Source: Candidatus Undinarchaeota archaeon
GTDB lineage: Archaea > SpSt-1190 > JASMDC01
Direction of reading: 5' to 3'
Assembly (NCBI GenBank): GCA_964519305.1
Contig: CAZFHY010000002.1
Span: 32,001-96,000, forward strand
DNA: 64,000 bases
In this document: positions 18,928 through 58,187 of the stretch, one piece after another
Position numbering within the stretch: position 1 is the stretch's first letter
Layout: each line of letters begins with the position of its first letter
Notes under the pieces: generated by a model
What the model was told of the DNA's origin: nothing
The model's database searches: none
The model's input: the letters and a program-made list of their open reading frames with translations, nothing else
Program-made: the position numbers and the translations under genes

Positions 18928-19608
18928 ATGGCCCGGTACGTCATCAAGGTGGGCGGCTCGGTGCTTGCCCCTGACGGTCCTGATGTGGACCATATCAGGC
19001 GGCTAGCAGAGGCTCTCAAGGAGATAGCTTCGGACGCAGAGGTTTTCGTCGTCGTCGGAGGAGGCCGTGTTGCCCGCCGATATATCGACGGAGCGCGTTC
19101 ACTTGGAGCGCCCGACGCTTACAGTGACATAATCGCCATCGGAGTCACCCGGGCTAACGCCCGGCTTATTATCGCAGCGCTGGGTGACGTGGCGCGACGT
19201 TCGCCCCCGACATCCATAGAAGGCGCCGCTGCAGCCGCGATGAAGGATCGTGTAGTGGTCATGGGCGGGACTGTACCCGGCCACACCACGGATGCGGTGG
19301 CCGCCTTACTTGCAGAATACGTGAGCGCCGATGCCTTAGTGATGTGCAAGGACGTGGGCGGGGTATACACCGCCGATCCAAAGAAGAATCCTGAAGCCGC
19401 TTTCATCCCCAGTCTTACCGGGGAAAAATTACTGGAGATAGTCTCGAAGGGGGATATGGTGGCGGGAGTGTCCGCGGTCACCGACCTACTGGCCGCTCAG
19501 GTCATCACACGCTCGGGACTTTGCACGTACGTAGTGGACGGACGCGACACTGCTAACATCATAGCTACCGTGAGGGAAAAGAAGTGCCCGGGAAGCAGGA
19601 TCAACTAG
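18928..19608 (+). CDS. pyrH: UMP kinase
   Basis: KVGGS, VVGGG..AR.Y, GG..PGHTTD, GVYTADP. Confidence 0.95.
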   Translation: MARYVIKVGGSVLAPDGPDVDHIRRLAEALKEIASDAEVFVVVGGGRVARRYIDGARSLGAPDAYSDIIAIGVTRANARLIIAALGDVARRSPPTSIEGAAAAAMKDRVVVMGGTVPGHTTDAVAALLAEYVSADALVMCKDVGGVYTADPKKNPEAAFIPSLTGEKLLEIVSKGDMVAGVSAVTDLLAAQVITRSGLCTYVVDGRDTANIIATVREKKCPGSRIN

Positions 19609-22042: not shown

Positions 22043-22660
22043 ATGGAGGTCCCCGATGTTGCCGTTGAGGAGTACCGTTACATGCTCGACCGGGGCTACA
22101 ATCCCGTTTCAGCCTTACGGCTCGTCGGTGAGCGGCACCTGCTCCCGGCAGAGGCCTGCAACGTTCTCCGCCGCCGTGTGTTCCCTCAAGGATGGGTGGC
22201 GTCGGTCAAGGACAAGCTGCTCCTTCCGAACGACATCGAGGGTAAACAGGTCGCTGTGGACCTCTACAACGTGCTCATTACATGCGAGGCCCGGTCCGCT
22301 GGTGATGCGTTCCTGAGCGATGACGGATTGTGGCGGGACGCTCGTGGCGTGTACGGCAAGTACCGCATAAGCGACGACACGCTATCCGCCCTCACAAGCA
22401 TCGTGCGGTTCATGGTCGAGAACCGCGTGGCTCAGGTGCGGTTCCTACTGGACGCTCAAGTGAGCAAGAGCGGCGACCTTGCTTCCCGGATAAGGCAAGT
22501 ACTGGCCGGTGAAAGGCTCGCGGGCGAGGTCAAGGTATTAAAAGATGTGGATGCGAGCATGCGCCGCCTGGGACGCACTGATTGGGTGGTCGCTACCTCG
22601 GACACTGGTATTATCCAGTACGTGACCGCCGTTGTCGATGTCCCCGGAGGGATTCAGTAG
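22043..22660 (+). CDS. DUF434 domain protein (PIN-like)
   Basis: Y.L.RGY, D.YNVLIT.E, DG..RD, SKSG.LA, ATSD. Confidence 0.85.
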   Translation: MEVPDVAVEEYRYMLDRGYNPVSALRLVGERHLLPAEACNVLRRRVFPQGWVASVKDKLLLPNDIEGKQVAVDLYNVLITCEARSAGDAFLSDDGLWRDARGVYGKYRISDDTLSALTSIVRFMVENRVAQVRFLLDAQVSKSGDLASRIRQVLAGERLAGEVKVLKDVDASMRRLGRTDWVVATSDTGIIQYVTAVVDVPGGIQ

Positions 22661-23787
22661 TGAGGAACCTGTTCGACGGACCTGAGCGTGGTGTGTTCCG
22701 CGGAGACGACGGAGACCTTGTGCTCCTCCACGACTACTTGCCGGACGAGCTCCCACATAGGGAGAACGAGATGCACGTCGTGGCGGACTGTGTCAGCCCG
22801 CTCATCAGCGGAGGGCGTCCAGTCCATGTATTCCTTCATGGTGCCCCGGGGATCGGTAAGACAGCAGTGACAAAGACAGTGCTCACCCATATGGGCGACC
22901 AGACCACTTGTGTCAAAGCGCTCTATCTCAACTGCTGGAGCAAGAACACCAGGCATGGAGTGCTCGTTGAACTCCTCACAGCTCTAGGGGAGATAGTCCC
23001 CCGTCAGGGTCTTTCAACGGATGAGGTGTACGACCGGCTCCTTTACCGCCTGGACCGGAAGGCCGATGGTTACGTCATTGCTCTCGACGAGGTGGACCGG
23101 TTGGCAGGCAAGGAGGGTGACGTGCTCTACGATCTCCTCCGCTCCGAGGTGAACCTCGGTCTCATCCTCATCTCGAACGATCCCTACGCCTTCCGCAACT
23201 TCGATGCCCGGGTCCGGTCATCGCTCAGTTATGAAGAGGTGTCTTTCGCTGCCTACGGGTACGATGAACTGAAGGACATCCTGGGCGAACGCGCGCGCAT
23301 GGCCTTCCTCCCGGGTGCCTGCGATCCTGCTATCGTGGGCGTGGTCGCCCGGTTCACCGCTGATAGCGGGGGCGATGTTCGGCTTGGGTTGGACTGTCTG
23401 CTGAAGGCCGGGCGCGAGGCAGAGCGTGCGGGCTCCGCCCGTGTCGGCGCAGATCACGTGAAAGCCGTTCTGGGCAGAGTGCGGAGTGCTCGTCTCAAGC
23501 TGGACCTACAAGGGATCACTGACGAGGAACGTGCCATCCTGCGAACAGTGCTCACCCTCACCGAGCATGACACGTCACCCGTCACCACGGGAGCTGTGTT
23601 CGACGCCTATAAGGAGAACGGAGGTGTCGTCGCCGAGCGCACGTTCCGCAAGTACCTGGGGAACCTGGAGTCGCTGCGCATCCTATCCTCGCGTCTGAGC
23701 GGCAAAGGCCAGCGGGGCAACACCCGGCTCATCACCGTGCGCGCACCCAGTACCGAGCTCACAGCGCTCCTAGGCGAGATGTTCTGA
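22660..23787 (+). CDS. cdc6: Orc1/Cdc6 family replication initiation protein
   Basis: Y.P..LPHRE, GAPGIGKT, YLNC, LDEVD, GDVR, C-terminal wHTH with G.RG.TR. Confidence 0.93.
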   Translation: MRNLFDGPERGVFRGDDGDLVLLHDYLPDELPHRENEMHVVADCVSPLISGGRPVHVFLHGAPGIGKTAVTKTVLTHMGDQTTCVKALYLNCWSKNTRHGVLVELLTALGEIVPRQGLSTDEVYDRLLYRLDRKADGYVIALDEVDRLAGKEGDVLYDLLRSEVNLGLILISNDPYAFRNFDARVRSSLSYEEVSFAAYGYDELKDILGERARMAFLPGACDPAIVGVVARFTADSGGDVRLGLDCLLKAGREAERAGSARVGADHVKAVLGRVRSARLKLDLQGITDEERAILRTVLTLTEHDTSPVTTGAVFDAYKENGGVVAERTFRKYLGNLESLRILSSRLSGKGQRGNTRLITVRAPSTELTALLGEMF

Positions 23788-24717: not shown

Positions 24718-26097
24718 CTAGAGGTCGACCTTGTCGCCCATCGAGGGGATGGCACAAGTAAGGTCACACCCCTCGAGCCGCTCCTTGAACGCTACTGCCG
24801 ACCGCTCCTCGCCGTGGACGATGAACACTTTCCGTGGGGGTTTTGAGAAGCTGGACACCCAGTGTTCCAGATCCTCGTAGTCGGCGTGGGCGGAAAAACC
24901 CGCGATCTGCTCGATCTTGGCGTTGACGTCGAACTCGTACCCCATCATACGGATCGTCTCGGCACCGTTCAGGAGGTGATGGCCCAGAGTACCTTCGGCC
25001 TGGAACCCAACGAAGATCACAGCGTTGCGGGGATTTCCGATGCCGTGGCGGATGTGGTGACGGATCCGGCCGGCGGTGCACATCCCGCTCCCGGCGATGA
25101 TCACGCACGGTTCGTCGTACTCGTTCAGGCTCACAGAGTCGGCGGTGGCTTGGGTGAAAACGAGCCCCTTGAACTTGAAGGGCGTTTCGAACGCGTCCAT
25201 GTTCTTCGGGTCGAACCAGTCCGTGTGCTTCGAGAAGATCTTAGTGGCCTTGATCGCTAGAGGGCTGTCCAGGAATACGAGCATTTCGGGCATCTTAGCA
25301 TCGCGCAAGAGCTCGTTCATCCCGTACAGGATCTCCTGGGTGCGTTCCACTGCGAACGATGGGATCATCACCCGCCCTCCCCTATCGTATGTCTCACGGA
25401 ATATGCGGGCCATCGTACGGCGCCGGTCTTCGACGCCCTCGTGTAGCCGGTCGCCGTACGTCGACTCGATGATGAGGTAGTCGGTATCCTTGATGATGGT
25501 CGGATCGTTCACAAGCGGTGCGTTCCGCTGACCTAGGTCGCCTGAGAACACGAGCTTGACCACGCGTTCCCCCTCGGTAGCCCACAGCTCGATGATGGCC
25601 GAGCCGAGTATATGGCCGGCGTTCCTGAAGCGGGCCCGGACGTTCCGGGTCACTTGGATATCCTCATCGTACTCCACGGGCTTGAAGTGCTTCACTGCTG
25701 CAGTCGCGTCTTCCGATGAATAAAGGGGACGGCGGGGGGGCAGCTTCTGGCGCTGGCGGCGCCGGTTCTCGTGCTCGGTGTCCCGAGCGATGACATGGGC
25801 CGAGTCCGCGAACATGATCTGGCACAGGTCATGTGTGGGCTCTGTGCTCCAGATGGTGCCCTTGAAACCCTCCTTCACGAGCTTGGGGATGAGCCCTGAG
25901 TGGTCGATGTGGGCGTGGGTGAGGATGAGGGCGGTGATGCGGGAGGGATCGAAACCGAATCCCTCGTAGTTCTTGCGCGTGACCTCCTTCCGGCCCTGGA
26001 ACATCCCGCAATCGATGAGGATCTTATCCTTGCCGACCTCAAGCAGGTAGCATGAACCAGTGACGATTTTCGCAGCGCCGTGGAAGCTCAGTCGCAT
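24718..26097 (-). CDS. MBL-fold beta-CASP ribonuclease
   Basis: THAHIDHSG, AGHILGS, FSGD, ESTYG, FAVERTQE, FSAHAD, VHGE. Confidence 0.93.
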   Translation of the reverse strand: MRLSFHGAAKIVTGSCYLLEVGKDKILIDCGMFQGRKEVTRKNYEGFGFDPSRITALILTHAHIDHSGLIPKLVKEGFKGTIWSTEPTHDLCQIMFADSAHVIARDTEHENRRRQRQKLPPRRPLYSSEDATAAVKHFKPVEYDEDIQVTRNVRARFRNAGHILGSAIIELWATEGERVVKLVFSGDLGQRNAPLVNDPTIIKDTDYLIIESTYGDRLHEGVEDRRRTMARIFRETYDRGGRVMIPSFAVERTQEILYGMNELLRDAKMPEMLVFLDSPLAIKATKIFSKHTDWFDPKNMDAFETPFKFKGLVFTQATADSVSLNEYDEPCVIIAGSGMCTAGRIRHHIRHGIGNPRNAVIFVGFQAEGTLGHHLLNGAETIRMMGYEFDVNAKIEQIAGFSAHADYEDLEHWVSSFSKPPRKVFIVHGEERSAVAFKERLEGCDLTCAIPSMGDKVDL

Positions 26098-26124
26098 AGC
26101 GTTCCGGGGGAAGTGCATCCTTTA

Positions 26125-52510: not shown

Positions 52511-53584
52511 ATGGAGACATGGGCTCGCCGGGCTTCCCGCAAGGGACACCTGGGGCCCTATGAACTGGAGCTGGGGACACGCATAATCAGGCTATTCCTC
52601 CGTCATGGTGCGTCCGATGCTGCCCAGCGGAGCGCAGATGCACTTACCGAGGCCCTTGGTGAGGCAGCGAACTCATGGGAGCGCTGGGAGCGGTACGGTC
52701 TGGCAGCAGAGGAGCTGGAAGCAGCGTCCGCCCTCCGGCAGATGGTCGGTGACGCTGAGAGTTGCAAGGTTCTTTCCCGCAAGGCCATAGTACTGCGCAA
52801 GCGTGAGGCCAAGCAGGACGTAAAAGTGTTGAAAGAAGCCCAACGCATCATCGCAGAGCATCGTTCGATATTTGAGAGTGGTGAGATGACTTGGGAAGAC
52901 CTACTATGGCTCCACGATGCAGCAGTGACTGTCCATTCACATCTCTGCAGGGATGTGGGGCCTGACGACGACCATTACGTCATTGTAGAGGCCTCTTGGG
53001 AGCGGCTCCTTCAAAAGCGGGATGAACTGGCAGTGCTGGACGTCATTAGGGGCTGCCCGGACTGCAGAACTGCGTTGTTGCCCCTGGTTTGTGCCCAAGA
53101 TCTACCCGCAGTAACCCTCCACTTCTGTCCTCAATGCGGACGGTGTTTCGGAACACGCTCTGCACTAGGATGGCGTGGACGGGGGCCGGTTGTGCTCACG
53201 CTCACTCGCGTAACCAATGTATCGCTCTCCGAGCGATTGTACACGATATTACGCGAGGATAGGGGAGCAGTCCATCTAGTGGTAAATCCCGACCGTAAGA
53301 TAGTCCTTGGCTTCGAGCTCACGACTTCTGGTCCCGTTGCGTTCAAGCCGGGGACCGCAGTTATCTATTCCGGTCTGGACGAGCCCTTGCGCTACTTGGC
53401 ACTTGAGGGTGGTCCCACGCTCGATGCCCTCCTGACGGCCTGGGGTGAGCACAGAGAGCATTTCCAGCATGTCGAAGAGGAGCTAACGCGTGCCCTCAGG
53501 GAGGAGACTGCCCGGTTGCTGGAGGAATCGGACCTATTGGAAAAGGCTGGTGCGACGCCGGTAGTGGGGCCCCCTGCGGGGTAA
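52511..53584 (+). CDS. Hypothetical protein with internal Zn ribbon
   Basis: Helical N-terminus, CPDC...CPQC. Confidence 0.6.
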   Translation: METWARRASRKGHLGPYELELGTRIIRLFLRHGASDAAQRSADALTEALGEAANSWERWERYGLAAEELEAASALRQMVGDAESCKVLSRKAIVLRKREAKQDVKVLKEAQRIIAEHRSIFESGEMTWEDLLWLHDAAVTVHSHLCRDVGPDDDHYVIVEASWERLLQKRDELAVLDVIRGCPDCRTALLPLVCAQDLPAVTLHFCPQCGRCFGTRSALGWRGRGPVVLTLTRVTNVSLSERLYTILREDRGAVHLVVNPDRKIVLGFELTTSGPVAFKPGTAVIYSGLDEPLRYLALEGGPTLDALLTAWGEHREHFQHVEEELTRALREETARLLEESDLLEKAGATPVVGPPAG

Positions 53585-53595
53585 TGACCCCGCCC

Positions 53596-53666
53596 GCGGC
53601 GATGATGAGAGCTTTTGTCTCGCAGGGCCTTTGGCCCGATGATGCGTGACGGGCGATCTGAGCCGC
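53596..53666 (+). ncRNA. Box C/D methylation guide sRNA, predicted target SSU rRNA C1402 (E. coli numbering)
   Basis: Terminal stem GCGGC/GCCGC; C box ATGATGA 53602-53608; C'-like ATGATGC 53639-53645; guide GTGACGGGCGAT antisense to CGCCCGUCAC; D box CTGA 53658-53661. Confidence 0.8.
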
Positions 53667-53745
53667 TGGCCCCTGACGGTTTAAAATCGGGATACTGCAT
53701 CGAGATTTTTAACATCACAAGTACACAAGATGTTATGGAAGGCAT

Positions 53746-54459
53746 CTATGCAACACTAGAGTGTAGATAGTACAGTCCGACCACGATGAAGATGAAAGCT
53801 GTAATCTTCCTCAACACAATCTCAACTGATGTAACCTGCTTAACGATGCGTTCGACCGAACTGTATCCCAGACTGAGGATAAGAGCGAACACAGCCACGG
53901 GTAAGGCGGTCCCTACGCCGAAGATGGGTGGAAGTAGAACTCCTCCAGTTGTCTTCAATGAGAGCGGTATGAGCAGCGCAAAGAAGAACACAGCACTATA
54001 AGGACAGAACGCAAGAGCAAGCAGAGCGCCCAGAAGAAAGGAACCCAAGGTTCCGGATTCCCCTGCTTTTAACCGGAGTCTTTCCATGAAGGTGCTACCG
54101 CTTGGAAGTCCAAGGGGGAGCAGGTCCGCAAGGACGAGGCCACCCAGGATAAGTATAGGTCCCATGAGGCTATTGCCCCATGACTGGAGGGGGAGGGCGA
54201 CCTCGCTGGCCTTCAGCCCGATAGTGACGAGGAGGACACCCAGTATCGAATATGTGAATACACGCCCGAGGGTGTAAAGTGAAGCGGCCACGAATGTGTC
54301 TCTGGGACGTGTCATATTCCTGGAAATATAGGCGATAGCAGCAATATTGGACGCTAGGGGACAGGGGCTGATGGACGTAACGAGACCTAACAGGAACGCT
54401 GTTACGGGTGCAACCTGTGAGGAATCGACCATCAATAATACTTGCTCAACGAGGCTCAT
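53746..54459 (-). CDS. ArsG-family/CcdA-like membrane permease
   Basis: ISPCPLA.NI.AI, Y.LGR, LAFCPYS..FF. Confidence 0.88.
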   Translation of the reverse strand: MSLVEQVLLMVDSSQVAPVTAFLLGLVTSISPCPLASNIAAIAYISRNMTRPRDTFVAASLYTLGRVFTYSILGVLLVTIGLKASEVALPLQSWGNSLMGPILILGGLVLADLLPLGLPSGSTFMERLRLKAGESGTLGSFLLGALLALAFCPYSAVFFFALLIPLSLKTTGGVLLPPIFGVGTALPVAVFALILSLGYSSVERIVKQVTSVEIVLRKITAFIFIVVGLYYLHSSVA

Positions 54460-55253
54460 CCCAGACCACCGAGCTTGGCCTTCAAGAGTGGTCGGAAGTA
54501 GTCCACGAATTGTTCCTGCTCATTGTTCACGTACCATGCCCTCGTGTTCTCCTCGATGTGCTCTTCTCCATCCTTGACAACGTTCAGAAAGAGAGAGGAT
54601 GACTTGACGCCATACTTCTTCGCGATTTCCGCGTTCTCAGGTAGTTCCACGTTGATCGATTCGTAAGTGATGACGCCGTTCTTTAGCTCTTCGGCGAAAA
54701 ATGTCCGGATGGTGTACTCAGCGAACTTGGCTATGTTCCTGCACCCCGTGCACTGTTGATGGCCGTGGAAGTGGCGCACATGGATGCGATCGACCGCATA
54801 TTTTTTCACTGAGGGCGTGGACGTCGGATCGAGCGTGGGTGATGGTTGAAATGGAAGGTCGCAGGATTCGCCAGTACAGTCGACCTCTGCGCCATCGGTA
54901 CAGAAATGGTCTAGGCCGCAATGTTGTTCTCCAGCACAGTGTGCATCCGAGGAGCAGCACGTCTTTCCAGCTGCACAGCATATGCTCCAGCGGCAGTTAC
55001 CGCCTCTGCATTCCGATGTAGAGAGGCAAGGCTCACCGTTTGCTCTGAGTGACGAACCATCATCATCGATATAACTTAATGGGCCGGTGTCGACACGGGG
55101 GCCTATCTCGATCGTGTCTCCCGTCTGGAACCTGTCAACGGTGATGGTCATTAGACCGATTAGCAGCGTAGCTAGGATTATCTTGTTCGCGACCATCTCG
55201 AAGGTCCAACCGGATGCCCGCCCGGTCTCAGGCATCCCGCTCAGCTCAACCAT
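54456..55253 (-). CDS. ArsF-family thioredoxin-like protein with inserted Cys-rich domain
   Basis: C-terminal FH...C..C..I domain; TM plus ~12-Cys segment in front of it; start uncertain. Confidence 0.75.
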   Translation of the reverse strand: MVELSGMPETGRASGWTFEMVANKIILATLLIGLMTITVDRFQTGDTIEIGPRVDTGPLSYIDDDGSSLRANGEPCLSTSECRGGNCRWSICCAAGKTCCSSDAHCAGEQHCGLDHFCTDGAEVDCTGESCDLPFQPSPTLDPTSTPSVKKYAVDRIHVRHFHGHQQCTGCRNIAKFAEYTIRTFFAEELKNGVITYESINVELPENAEIAKKYGVKSSSLFLNVVKDGEEHIEENTRAWYVNNEQEQFVDYFRPLLKAKLGGLG

Positions 55254-55471
55254 TTCCGGAGCTCCTCTTCATGTGGGACCCGTCCCGAACACTTGATATC
55301 ACCATCAATGGCCAGGGCAGGGATCATCATGATACCACGTTCGATAATCTCATCGAGGTCACTGATCTTGCTCACGTCGGCATGCGGATCCAGCTCCGAA
55401 ACGACCTTCATTACCAACGCTTCGAGGGCGGTGCACGCGGGGCAGCCGGTGCCGAAGACCTCGATTCTCAT
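55241..55471 (-). CDS. MTH895/ArsE family small thioredoxin
   Basis: MRIEVFGTGCPAC...G.M..PAL.IDG...SGRVP. Confidence 0.9.
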   Translation of the reverse strand: MRIEVFGTGCPACTALEALVMKVVSELDPHADVSKISDLDEIIERGIMMIPALAIDGDIKCSGRVPHEEELRKWLS

Positions 55472-55498
55472 TAAGCTGTTAACTGGTAGCCAACATTT

Positions 55499-55535
55499 AT
55501 ATGAATATCCGTACATATGAATACTCGTACATATG
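55499..55535. promoter_or_regulatory. Putative ArsR operator, tandem 16-bp repeat
   Basis: ATATGAATATCCGTAC ATATGAATACTCGTAC ATATG between the divergent arsE-like gene and arsR. Confidence 0.65.
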
Positions 55536-55835
55536 GATGTCGAACGCCTGTTCCGGTGTCTGGACGATAGTACACGCCGTCGCATCCTCCTCTTCCTTGG
55601 GAAGGACGAGAGATGCGTATGCGAGATCGTCGAGCACCTGGACCGGGACCAGTCGCTCACCTCCCACCACCTCAAGCGTCTGAGGGAATGCGGGCTGGTG
55701 CAGAGCCGTCGGGATGGGAAACGTATCATGTACCGTGTGACCGATCCCTCCCTCATCGTGCTCCTTCGTGATGCCGAGCACGTTACCGGGACGATCGATG
55801 GTATCTGTCGGTGCGTGGAGTGCGACAAGGACTAG
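55533..55835 (+). CDS. arsR: ArsR/SmtB family transcriptional repressor
   Basis: D..R..IL, CVCEI, S.HL..L...GLV, C-terminal CRCVEC. Confidence 0.92.
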   Translation: MDVERLFRCLDDSTRRRILLFLGKDERCVCEIVEHLDRDQSLTSHHLKRLRECGLVQSRRDGKRIMYRVTDPSLIVLLRDAEHVTGTIDGICRCVECDKD

Positions 55836-55886: not shown

Positions 55887-57020
55887 ATGGGGAAAAATGA
55901 CGAGAAGATGGACAAGGGGTCCAAAGGGACGACCACAGAGGAGATAACCGCGGGACGCGGTCTGAGCTTCTTCGAGCGATACCTCTCTCTATGGGTCATC
56001 CTCTGCATCGTTGCAGGGATCGTCCTCGGGAGAGTTGCCCCTGGCGTTGCCACGTCCCTGGACCAGATGGCCGTGTACCAGGTGTCTATCCCCATCGCGA
56101 TATGCTTGTTCTTCATGATGTACCCCATCATGGTGAAGATCGACTTCGCCGAAGTGGTCAAGGCAGGCAAGACCCCCAAACCGGTCGCGCTCACCCTGTT
56201 CGTCAACTGGTGCGTGAAGCCCTTCACCATGTACCTCATCGCCTCATTCTTCCTAGGGTCCATGTTCGCTCCGCATCTGGTGGGTACCGAGATAATCAAG
56301 GATGGAAGACAGGTGGAACTGTTCCGCTCCTACATAGCCGGCGCCATTCTTCTGGGCATCGCTCCCTGTACGGCCATGGTGCTCGTGTGGAGCCATCTTG
56401 CCAGGGCTAATATGGGCCACACCCTGGTGATGGTCGCTATCAACTCTCTGACCATGCTGTTCCTGTACGCACCGCTGGGCGGCTATCTACTGGGCGTGAA
56501 CGCCCTACCCATCCCCTGGCAGACCATCGTGCTCTCGGTAGTTGTGTACGTGGGTCTCCCTCTGGTCGCAGGTTACTTCACAAGGAAATGGATCATCGAG
56601 AACAAGGGTATGGAGTACTTCGAGGAGAACTTCCTGCCGCATCTGGGCACCGTCTCTATCGGGGCGCTGCTTGTGACCCTGGTCCTCCTGTTCTCGTTCA
56701 AGGGGGACGTCATACTGAAGCATCCCGGTACCATCTTCTACATAGCGGTCCCCCTGTTCATACAGACCATCCTCATATTCGTGCTCGGTTACGGTATTGC
56801 CAAGCTAATCGGGCTCTCGTACGAGAACGCCGCTCCCAGCGCCATCATCGGTGCGTCCAACCACTTCGAGGTGGCCATCGCAACGGCGACCATGCTGTTC
56901 GGACTGAGGTCCGGGGCCGCACTGGCCACGGTGGTGGGCGTGCTCATAGAAGTACCCGTGATGCTAATGCTCGTTGCTGTGTGCCTGCGAACGCAGGACT
57001 GGTTCCCCACAGAGGGATGA
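55887..57020 (+). CDS. acr3: Acr3 family arsenite efflux transporter
   Basis: FFERYL..W, MMYP.M, APCTAMV, SNHFE.A.A, EVPVML. Confidence 0.96.
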
Positions 57021-57063: not shown

Positions 57064-57207
57064 ATGGCTGAAGAAAAGAAAGGCTGGCTCAAGGGATTAT
57101 TGGACAAGATGGACAGTGACCTGGAGGATAGGTCGAAGAAGAGCGGATGCTGTTGCTCTGGTAGTTCGTGCTGTCCACCGCCCAAGAAGAAGGACGAAGA
57201 GAAGTAG
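57064..57207 (+). CDS. 47-aa Cys-rich putative metal(loid)-binding peptide
   Basis: Below the ORF-track cutoff; AGGTGA SD; MAEEKKGWLKGLLDKMDSDLEDRSKKSGCCCSGSSCCPPPKKKDEEK. Confidence 0.75.
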   Translation: MAEEKKGWLKGLLDKMDSDLEDRSKKSGCCCSGSSCCPPPKKKDEEK

Positions 57208-57209
57208 GG

Positions 57210-58187
57210 ATGGTAGATCCGTTCTACCCTGTCCAGGTCCTGGCGGACCGGACGGTCCTAGCTCTCCTCGGGACCGGCGAAGGTCCCGCTGCAGCAGCGC
57301 TGAACTTCTTCCTCTACGATACTGTGAAGATACTCCTGCTTCTCTTCGTGATGATCGCTGCTATCGGCGTGCTGCGGACATATCTGCCCCGCAAGCGGGT
57401 GAAGGAATGGCTGACGCGGGGGCCTCCCGGCCGGGGGAACGTGCTCGCTGCGGTGTTCGGTGCGATTTCTCCCTTCTGCTCGTGCTCCTCTGTCCCCATC
57501 TTCATCGGATTCATGGAAGCGGGCATTCCGCTCGGGATCGCATTTTCCTTCCTCATCACCTCACCGCTCATCAACGAGTACATAGCCATCATCATGCTCG
57601 GCGAGTTCGGCTGGCGTATCACAGCAGCGTACATCGCGAGCGGAATGACGATCGGTATCGTCGCGGGCATGGTGTTGGGCCGTATGGGGCTGGAAGTGCA
57701 CCTTGTCGAGGACCTCGTGTCGCCTGACGAGGAGCTGGATGACGAGGAGTTCGGTTCCATGAGAGAGCGTGTGGACTTCGGCCTGGAAGAGGCCCGCGAT
57801 ATCGTGGGTAAGGTATGGCGCTGGGTCGTGGCGGGCGTCGCGATCGGTGCGTTCCTCCATGGCTATGTACCAGCAGAGACCATCCAGGGCATCATCTCGA
57901 GGGGCGGTGTGTTCATGGTCCCGATCGCCACGGCCCTTGGAGTTCCGCTCTACGCCAACTGCAGCGCAGTGGTCCCTATCGCCGTGGTGCTCTTTCAGAA
58001 GGGCGTACCCCTGGGCACGGCACTCGCCTTTATGATGGCAACGGCAGCCCTCTCCGTCCCCGAGGCCGTCATCCTCCGACGGGCAATGAAGCTACCTCTG
58101 ATACTGGTGTTCTTCGGTACCGTCGCGGCCGGTATAGTTGTCACAGGCTACCTGTTCAACGTGCTGCAGGTCGTGCTCATCGGTTGA
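57210..58187 (+). CDS. arsP: ArsP/DUF318 family permease
   Basis: FFLYDT.KI, PFCSCS.VP, SPL.NE, P.Y, S.PE. Confidence 0.88.
   Translation: MVDPFYPVQVLADRTVLALLGTGEGPAAAALNFFLYDTVKILLLLFVMIAAIGVLRTYLPRKRVKEWLTRGPPGRGNVLAAVFGAISPFCSCSSVPIFIGFMEAGIPLGIAFSFLITSPLINEYIAIIMLGEFGWRITAAYIASGMTIGIVAGMVLGRMGLEVHLVEDLVSPDEELDDEEFGSMRERVDFGLEEARDIVGKVWRWVVAGVAIGAFLHGYVPAETIQGIISRGGVFMVPIATALGVPLYANCSAVVPIAVVLFQKGVPLGTALAFMMATAALSVPEAVILRRAMKLPLILVFFGTVAAGIVVTGYLFNVLQVVLIG

Follow-up and report, generated by a model that had tools for sequence, protein, structure and literature searches.

Does the short element at positions 53596-53666 of this stretch encode an RNA that directs the 2'-O-methylation of one particular cytidine in the ribosomal decoding centre? 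This cytidine, C1402 of 16S rRNA in E. coli numbering, is in contact with the P-site codon. Bacteria methylate its ribose with RsmI and eukaryotes with the help of U43-type snoRNAs, snR70 and SNORD43 being the guides for the equivalent position. The initial annotation had named both the bacterial and the eukaryotic modification, in agreement with PMC11551388 and PMC11542601; PMC11551388 and PMC2831307 attribute the m4Cm1402 of E. coli to the joint action of RsmH and RsmI. Table 2 of PMC11542601 gives Arabidopsis 18S Cm1645 (guide AtU43), yeast Cm1639 and human Cm1703 as equivalents of E. coli Cm1402, together with the archaeal 16S Cm1369 of P. abyssi (citing Gaspin et al. 2000). Cm1402 is also described for N. 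equitans, by RiboMeth-seq, in PMC5389701. Guide predictions for helix 44 were called 'relatively sparse' by Dennis et al. 2015 (PMC4644070), whose Additional file 1 lists Pyrobaculum calidifontis sR25 and Thermoproteus tenax sR35 under '16S C1389*'. Counted along the alignment in the supplement of that paper, C1389 is E. coli C1402; in our reading of the printed guide, the fifth nucleotide before box D in PCAsR25 is an A where a G would be needed, and it is therefore not a clean guide for this site.

In the following, the window denotes the whole stretch of DNA that was analysed, with its length of 64,000 nucleotides. We argue that 53596-53666 is a genuine box C/D sRNA and the guide for 2'-O-methylation of the C1402 equivalent, a reading to which we assign a probability of about 80%.

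Box C/D Architecture of the Locus

The locus lies on the plus strand and is about 71 nt long. All elements of the initial description, namely the terminal stem, the 3-nt bulge, the C box and the D box, were found on this strand where they had been placed. Together with the elements added here and the features directly upstream, they read as follows:

52511-53584, plus strand: 357-aa ORF of no known family, on the same strand as the sRNA and ending 11 nt before it
53576-53593, plus strand: hairpin with the stop codon of this ORF in its loop (-13.6 kcal/mol), 2 nt before the sRNA and 100% conserved in the related locus L024
53596-53600, plus strand: 5' half of the terminal stem, GCGGC, pairing with 53662-53666
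53601-53603, plus strand: K-turn bulge G-A-U, three unpaired nucleotides, followed by the GA of box C
53602-53608, plus strand: box C, AUGAUGA, near the 5' end and matching RUGAUGA
53609-53620, plus strand: D' spacer, GAGCUUUUGUCU, 12 nt, reaching from box C to CGCA
53621-53624, plus strand: degenerate D' box, CGCA (compare CUGA), exactly 12 nt downstream of box C
53625-53637, plus strand: 13-nt hairpin GGGCC-UUU-GGCCC (-7.9 kcal/mol)
53640-53645, plus strand: box C', UGAUGC, with one mismatch, exactly 12 nt upstream of box D and preceded by G-A at 53638-53639
53646-53657, plus strand: D guide spacer, GUGACGGGCGAU, 12 nt, in which G53653 is the fifth base upstream of box D
53658-53661, plus strand: box D, CUGA, near the 3' end
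53662-53666, plus strand: 3' half of the terminal stem, GCCGC; the stretch shared with L024 continues to 53669

The terminal stem may extend outwards to 53593 with one mismatch. At the level of the sequence, the boxes permit the K-turn pairs G53604.A53661, A53605.G53660, U53606.U53659 and G53607-C53658. Both spacers between the C and D boxes measure exactly 12 nt, where about 12 nt are expected. This spacing also bears on the earlier statement that there is no clear D' box, which we can keep only in part: a D' box of canonical sequence is indeed missing, but a degenerate one, CGCA, is present, and because it stands exactly 12 nt from box C we regard it as a remnant of D'. The C' box UGAUGC had been overlooked. 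As to the two small internal hairpins reported before, GGGCC-UUU-GGCCC is solid, while GAG...CUC in the D' spacer is marginal with only -2.3 kcal/mol and was dropped as a feature.

How often would such an arrangement arise by chance? We searched both strands for sites that combine C and D boxes of exact sequence with a stem of 4 bp or more and with a C' box that has at most one mismatch and lies at 11-13 nt. The window contains one such site, compared with a mean of 0.01 in 100 first-order Markov resamples. A relaxed version of the scan returned the same single site, and neither the strict nor the relaxed criteria gave any further C/D sRNA in the window. One weak candidate on the minus strand, at 51172-51089, was lost under the stricter scan.

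Rfam gave no match anywhere in the window at gathering thresholds, and the best sub-threshold scores were those of SNORD103 (17.5 bits, threshold 45) and sR1 (15.4 bits, threshold 45). When 53400-53900 was searched in E-value mode, seven of the nine weak matches belonged to C/D-box families, and six spanned 53595-53667 on the plus strand.

Predicted Pairing with 16S rRNA

The sequence CGCCCGTCAC is found at positions 1400-1409 of E. coli rrsH, which bears out the target numbering of the initial annotation. G53653, the fifth nucleotide upstream of box D, forms a perfect G-C pair with C1402 of the E. coli 16S rRNA, also as proposed there. These pairings were computed with the E. coli 16S rRNA and with the sequence conserved among archaea in a published alignment, in place of the cognate 16S: the window holds no rRNA or tRNA genes, and blastn with the E. 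coli rrn operon detected no rRNA in the window or in any of the fetched relative loci. Among all sites of E. coli 16S and 23S rRNA, the guide pairs best with 16S 1398-1409, where 11 of 12 positions form Watson-Crick pairs; the runner-up scores 9.5. The duplex consists of ten contiguous pairs (1400-1409) and an additional pair with A1398, interrupted by a mismatch at 1399. In the alignment supplied with PMC4644070, ACCGCCCGUC is identical in E. coli and six archaea (Pca, Mma, Tte, Sac, Mka, Neq), and position 1408 is A or G.

The A at guide position 2, opposite 1399, had been explained either as a mismatch or as a sign of U1399 in the source organism. This A is invariant in all 27 copies of the family described below, and E. 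coli as well as the six archaea in the 16S alignment from Dennis et al. 2015 (PMC4644070) have a C at position 1399. On this comparison of sequences the mismatch appears to be the better reading, and we rejected U1399.

One may ask whether the RNA, although a genuine C/D sRNP, has its main job somewhere else. It could act as a folding chaperone of the 1400 region during 30S assembly, or it could address another RNA target that shares the same 9-10 nt. C/D sRNAs have indeed been proposed as rRNA chaperones (PMC7994747), and PMC5389701 proposes chaperoning for h44/h45 in N. equitans. The degenerate D' half in the window, the limitation to ten contiguous pairs and the conserved mismatch near box D would all agree with such a role. 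We nevertheless consider it unlikely as the main function, since the fifth position forms a perfect G-C pair, the spacer has its canonical length of 12 nt, and other archaea have been seen to carry Cm at the C1402 equivalent; moreover, chaperoning and methylation are compatible with each other. The reading that we follow is hence that of a guide for methylation of C1402.

Relatives in Other Genomes

We scanned 185,579 species genomes with the pattern C'(5 nt)-NN-UGACGGGCG-NN-CUGA, in which nine guide bases are fixed. The scan yielded 31 loci, where by our own arithmetic about 17 are expected by chance. Complete arrangements with box C, a complementary terminal stem, C', guide and box D were present at 26 of them; the other five, all bacterial (L005, L013, L020, L025 and L030), show the bare pattern only. 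The complete loci come almost entirely from contigs titled as archaea (23 of 26), mostly Thermoplasmata or Methanomassiliicoccales. The titles read Methanomassiliicoccales, Methanomethylophilaceae, Thermoplasmata, Proteinoplasmatales SG8-5, 'methanogenic archaeon', 'Methanobacteriota' and, in one case, Ca. Undinarchaeales. Three complete loci lie in MAG contigs with bacterial titles, namely L007, L022 and L023 (Faecalibacterium, Acutalibacteraceae, Eggerthellaceae). A Methanomethylophilaceae locus can be aligned to the greater part of L007 and L022 with 78-81% identity, and these two contigs look mis-binned. L023, titled Eggerthellaceae, matches the archaeal loci over 122 nt only, around the sRNA at the end of the contig, next to otherwise uninformative transporter genes, and may be chimeric.

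The terminal stem is supported by covariation. In the alignment of 27 sequences 96.9% of the cells are paired, and compensatory changes occur in four of the five pairs. None of 500 shuffles was as good, and when the partner strand was slid by 1-3 columns, pairing fell to 14-62%. None of the 27 copies departs by more than one base from the core UGAUGA of box C. The invariance of the guide core, on the other hand, is partly a matter of construction, because the search pattern had fixed it. The unfixed bases do vary: the one next to C' is G in 14 copies, U in 8, A in 3 and C in 2, and the one next to D is G in 20, A in 4 and U in 3.

A covariance model was built from 22 distinct relatives, leaving out the window and L024. 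It matches 53596-53666 over its full length (positions 1-61 of 61) with 41.8 bits and E = 8e-9. The next match in the window, at 19234-19298, reaches 14.2 bits; it has no D box, lies inside an ORF and was discarded. Most of the score of the locus comes from the boxes and the guide, so that the match is no proof of common descent, and the sequence data would be compatible both with homology of the window copy to the Thermoplasmata copies and with convergence on the same target. Six diverse relatives, compared with Rfam, gave E-values of 1.6e-6 to 1e-2 against sR60, sR1, sR2, sR3 and snoPyro_CD, all below the gathering scores.

Around the relatives the A/T content peaks at -28 to -23 from the stem (0.73-0.92 A/T, TATA-like), and T-runs follow just past the 3' stem, as is usual for promoters and terminators in archaea. 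Additionally, a gene of the tsr3/DUF367 family (SSU rRNA acp-transferase) lies upstream, head-to-head with the sRNA and divergent from it, at 0.1-2 kb in 20 of the 26 loci, for example at L029:3584-4126(-), L003:4052-4573(-) and L012:355-852(+). The encoded proteins contain PF04034 and PF04068 and score above the cut-off of NCBIfam PRK02287 and below that of the Tsr3 equivalog; identity among the Tsr3 proteins of these loci goes down to 40%, so that the arrangement spans distant lineages of Thermoplasmata. MCM follows in 12 of the tsr3 loci. We regard the linkage as supportive of a role in SSU rRNA, not as decisive, because related genomes share synteny by descent. In the window itself, tblastn found no tsr3 at E-values up to 1e-3.

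Taken together, the proposal that the D guide selects C1402 gains support from the complete architecture, the 26 related loci, which retain the guide amid variation elsewhere in the RNA, the covariation of the stem and the match of the covariance model.

The Copy in L024 and the Remodelled C'/D' Module

The one relative titled Ca. Undinarchaeales archaeon, L024 (JASMDC010000022.1), aligns with the window in two blocks of 85.7% and 88.5% identity over 8.5 kb, and the neighbouring proteins of the two loci are 76-97% identical. In contrast, positions 53576-53669 are the same in both at all 94 of 94 positions, a block made up of the upstream hairpin, the sRNA and the three bases after it. Since these 94 nt are 100% identical amid a divergence of about 12-14%, we argue that purifying selection acts on every part of the RNA including its remodelled middle.

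This middle sets the two copies apart from the rest of the family. The D' box is CGCA in the window and in L024, CUGC in L018 and CUGA in 24 of the 27 copies. Between D' and C' the window and L024 alone have an insert of 15 nt, whereas the loop measures 3-4 nt in 23 other copies, 7 nt in L008 (determined by eye) and 9 nt in L018. The 13-nt hairpin is absent from the 25 other relatives, with their 3-9 nt at this place, and identical in L024. Measured against a regular C'/D' K-loop, the module has one mismatch in C', two of the four D' positions changed and a hairpin instead of the loop.

Three folds can be drawn for the module. The first is a K-turn register on a 5-bp stem with the bulge G-A-U (G53641.A53624, A53642.C53623, U53643.G53622 and G53644-C53621), which retains just one of the two sheared G.A pairs. 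In the second, CGCA pairs with UGCG at 53643-53646 and GAUGA becomes a 5-nt bulge; this bulged hairpin is the optimum for the free RNA with -12.0 kcal/mol, compared with -10.7 kcal/mol for the third, a hairpin with a 2x2 internal loop, and -9.3 kcal/mol for the core hairpin alone, all according to a nearest-neighbour model, which cannot score K-turns. In the fold of the free RNA the first guide base is paired and part of the guide is paired with the D' side. It is the combination of the substitutions in D' with the one at the end of C' that creates the four Watson-Crick pairs, which suggests that the helix may have been selected rather than having arisen by simple decay, with two near-identical sequences behind this suggestion.

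Could the window then hold a decaying or inactive copy, in which the internal module has collapsed into a bulged hairpin that L7Ae does not bind, so that neither a symmetric sRNP nor methylation would result? The four Watson-Crick pairs between the D' CGCA and a C' box ending in C, the 5-nt bulge and the lowest free energy (-12.0 versus -9.3 kcal/mol) would be in line with such a collapse, as would the lack of the promoter and of the tsr3 context of the family. A copy without function would, however, hardly stay 100% identical over 94 nt between genomes that differ by about 12-14% around it, and the RNA of the window has kept its terminal K-turn, the C' box, the two 12-nt spacers and the guide intact. 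We judge this explanation to be highly improbable and return to a functional guide RNA with an altered middle.

What does the D' spacer do? For the D' spacers of the window and of ten relatives, E. coli 16S and 23S rRNA offer no convincing complement, and six D' target words of 8-9 nt are absent from the seven archaeal rRNAs in the supplement of Dennis et al. 2015 (PMC4644070). For this reason we consider these D' guides to be orphans; that of the window is probably an orphan or inactive guide, its D' function presumably lost. D' spacers also vary among the subclades of the C1402-guide family, whose C'/D' module seems generally tolerant of change. Deviant copies are found at L008:4957-5027, where the C box is a variant, the loop has 7 nt and the D' spacer extends to about 20 nt, and at L018:4996-5061, with the D' box CUGC and the 9-nt loop. 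The copy at L031:4971-5024 has a D' guide, GUUCAGCCU..., that agrees with the one of Rfam sR60 (41 bits against a gathering score of 50), so that an sR60-like D' guide is combined there with the C1402 D guide, the same guide being joined to different partners across lineages.

The Upstream Gene and the Flanks of the sRNA

No TATA-like element is present at -28 to -23 of the window sRNA, where the bases are GGCCCC, and L024 is likewise without one. A TATA-like motif of their own is present in only about 20% of the C/D sRNA genes of archaea, and it is common for such genes to lie less than 25 nt from an ORF and to be matured from longer transcripts, with the box motifs being what matters for maturation (all PMC7994747). 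Because the sRNA has no promoter of its own and starts 11 nt after a stop codon, we think that it would be trimmed from the transcript of the upstream gene, and the 357-aa ORF is probably its host transcript. This ORF belongs to no Pfam family, is 76% identical in L024 and has its nearest ESM Atlas clusters, at a weak 0.85, in Thermoplasmatota. The hairpin at 53576-53593 could serve as a processing boundary or as an insulator.

That there is no sRNA gene at all, only a structured mRNA 3' end (terminator-like or an L7Ae-binding regulatory element) with a chance resemblance to C/D RNAs, appears scarcely credible: the start 11 nt past the stop codon, the strong stop-codon hairpin before it, the missing promoter and the binding of L7Ae to mRNA K-turns reported in PMC5539422 may point in this direction, but the chance expectation for the architecture is 0.01 per window, the same guide and architecture recur in 25 unrelated genomic contexts with promoters of their own, and the covariance model matches over the full length. 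An sRNA gene that depends on its upstream neighbour for transcription remains our reading of the arrangement.

On the other side of the sRNA the window carries about 1.84 kb (53670-55510) that L024 lacks. This extra segment begins three bases past the 3' stem, so that the 3' end of the sRNA coincides with an indel boundary. It contains, all on the minus strand, genes for a DsbD_2 membrane protein (53746-54459) and a 265-aa protein of no known family (54456-55253) as well as a Thioredoxin_3 ORF within 55241-55828. It is followed by arsR (55533-55835), an ACR3/SBF transporter (55887-57020) and ArsP (57168-58187).

Elsewhere in the window we noted an Orc1/Cdc6 protein (22582-23787) and a beta-CASP/MBL RNase-like protein (24718-26118), whose closest non-self relatives are 50-56% identical; their named best matches are DPANN archaea (Woese-, Alti-, Aenigm-, Micr- and Nanoarchaeota) with 36-56% identity. 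These matches and the title of the L024 contig point to DPANN archaea; the other carriers of the sRNA are Thermoplasmata. The organism is poorly sampled. The metabolism encoded in the window is fairly rich, with urocanate hydratase, a three-subunit enzyme of the xanthine dehydrogenase type, a GH1 beta-glucosidase and B12-radical-SAM enzymes.

Comparison with Known Systems

The Pyrococcus sRNAs (snoPyro_CD and the sR families), among which we count the guide behind Cm1369 of P. abyssi, resemble the window RNA in class, size range, 12-nt spacers, the N+5 rule and the rRNA position. They differ in that the window RNA has a stem-closed internal module with a degenerate D' and no K-loop; this comparison covers the Rfam families, and Pyrococcus gave no match to the pattern of our genome scan. 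The guides of Thermoplasmata and Methanomassiliicoccales (25 loci) share the guide core, the C' box, the D box and the terminal K-turn with the window RNA. Unlike it, they have a canonical D' CUGA with a loop of 3-4 nt (23 of 25), a TATA-like promoter of their own, a T-run terminator and a head-to-head tsr3 (20 of 26).

The U43 family of eukaryotes addresses the same cytidine by way of a fibrillarin C/D RNP and the N+5 rule; the eukaryotic snoRNAs are, however, longer and work with Snu13, Nop56 and Nop58. No eukaryotic family for the C1402 site was among the Rfam matches, at E-values up to 10 for the window and up to 1 for the relatives. Bacterial RsmI has in common with the predicted role of the window RNA the nucleotide, the 2'-O-methylation and the P site. 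It is, in contrast, a stand-alone protein enzyme that uses no guide RNA and is evolutionarily unrelated.

In the literature searched we found no description of C/D sRNAs from Thermoplasmata, Methanomassiliicoccales or Undinarchaeota. The family of C1402 guides and its remodelled variant thus appear to be undescribed, while the class of RNA and the modified site are already known.

Proposed Mechanism and Conclusion

How would the RNA work? What the sequences show directly is the architecture, its conservation and covariation, and the complementarity to a conserved part of 16S rRNA; expression, assembly of the RNP, the methylation and the loss of D' function are inferred. Boxes C and D, joined by the 5-bp terminal stem, would form a K-turn to which L7Ae binds, following the model of PMC7994747, and Nop5 and fibrillarin would then assemble on the L7Ae-bound K-turn. 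The 68 tiled ORFs of the 64-kb window encode none of these three proteins, a count that is confined to the window; PMC9258230 lists fibrillarin and Nop5 among the single-copy markers of archaea. The D spacer would pair with 16S 1400-1409 and with A1398, and fibrillarin would methylate the ribose opposite the fifth guide nucleotide, at the C1402 equivalent in the P site and decoding centre. The sRNA itself is most likely trimmed from the transcript of the upstream gene and would be protected by the bound proteins. In this lineage the second module is remodelled: D' has decayed to CGCA, and the 13-nt hairpin closes C'/D' in place of a K-loop. A decayed D' and closure by a hairpin make a single-guide sRNA probable, whose internal module would then be an assembly platform only.

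A further-reaching version of this scenario is speculative, and we regard it as rather doubtful. It holds that the K-loop was rebuilt by co-ordinated substitutions (UG to GC in D', A to C at the last base of C') into a bulged hairpin with Watson-Crick pairs, which would make the RNA a natural single-guide archaeal sRNA ('half-mer', eukaryote-like), strictly selected for Cm1402 only. Cm1402 would belong to the core of RNA-guided methylations in the archaeal/eukaryotic small subunit and might be ancestral. If this were true, the retention of the guide across mesophilic Thermoplasmata, which have few sRNAs, and its coupling to tsr3 would mark Cm1402 as a core modification.

In summary, archaeal evidence for the methylation of C1402 has been patchy, consisting of Cm1369 in P. 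abyssi, Cm1402 in N. equitans and weak guide predictions in Thermoproteales only. A clean C1402 guide in about 25 genomes of Thermoplasmata and Methanomassiliicoccales, and in the separate lineage of the window, would supply the archaeal part of a modification found in all three domains. For cultivable gut methanogens it leads to the directly testable prediction that the C1402 equivalent carries Cm. The remodelled module, finally, would be a natural experiment on how much of C'/D' an archaeal sRNP needs.
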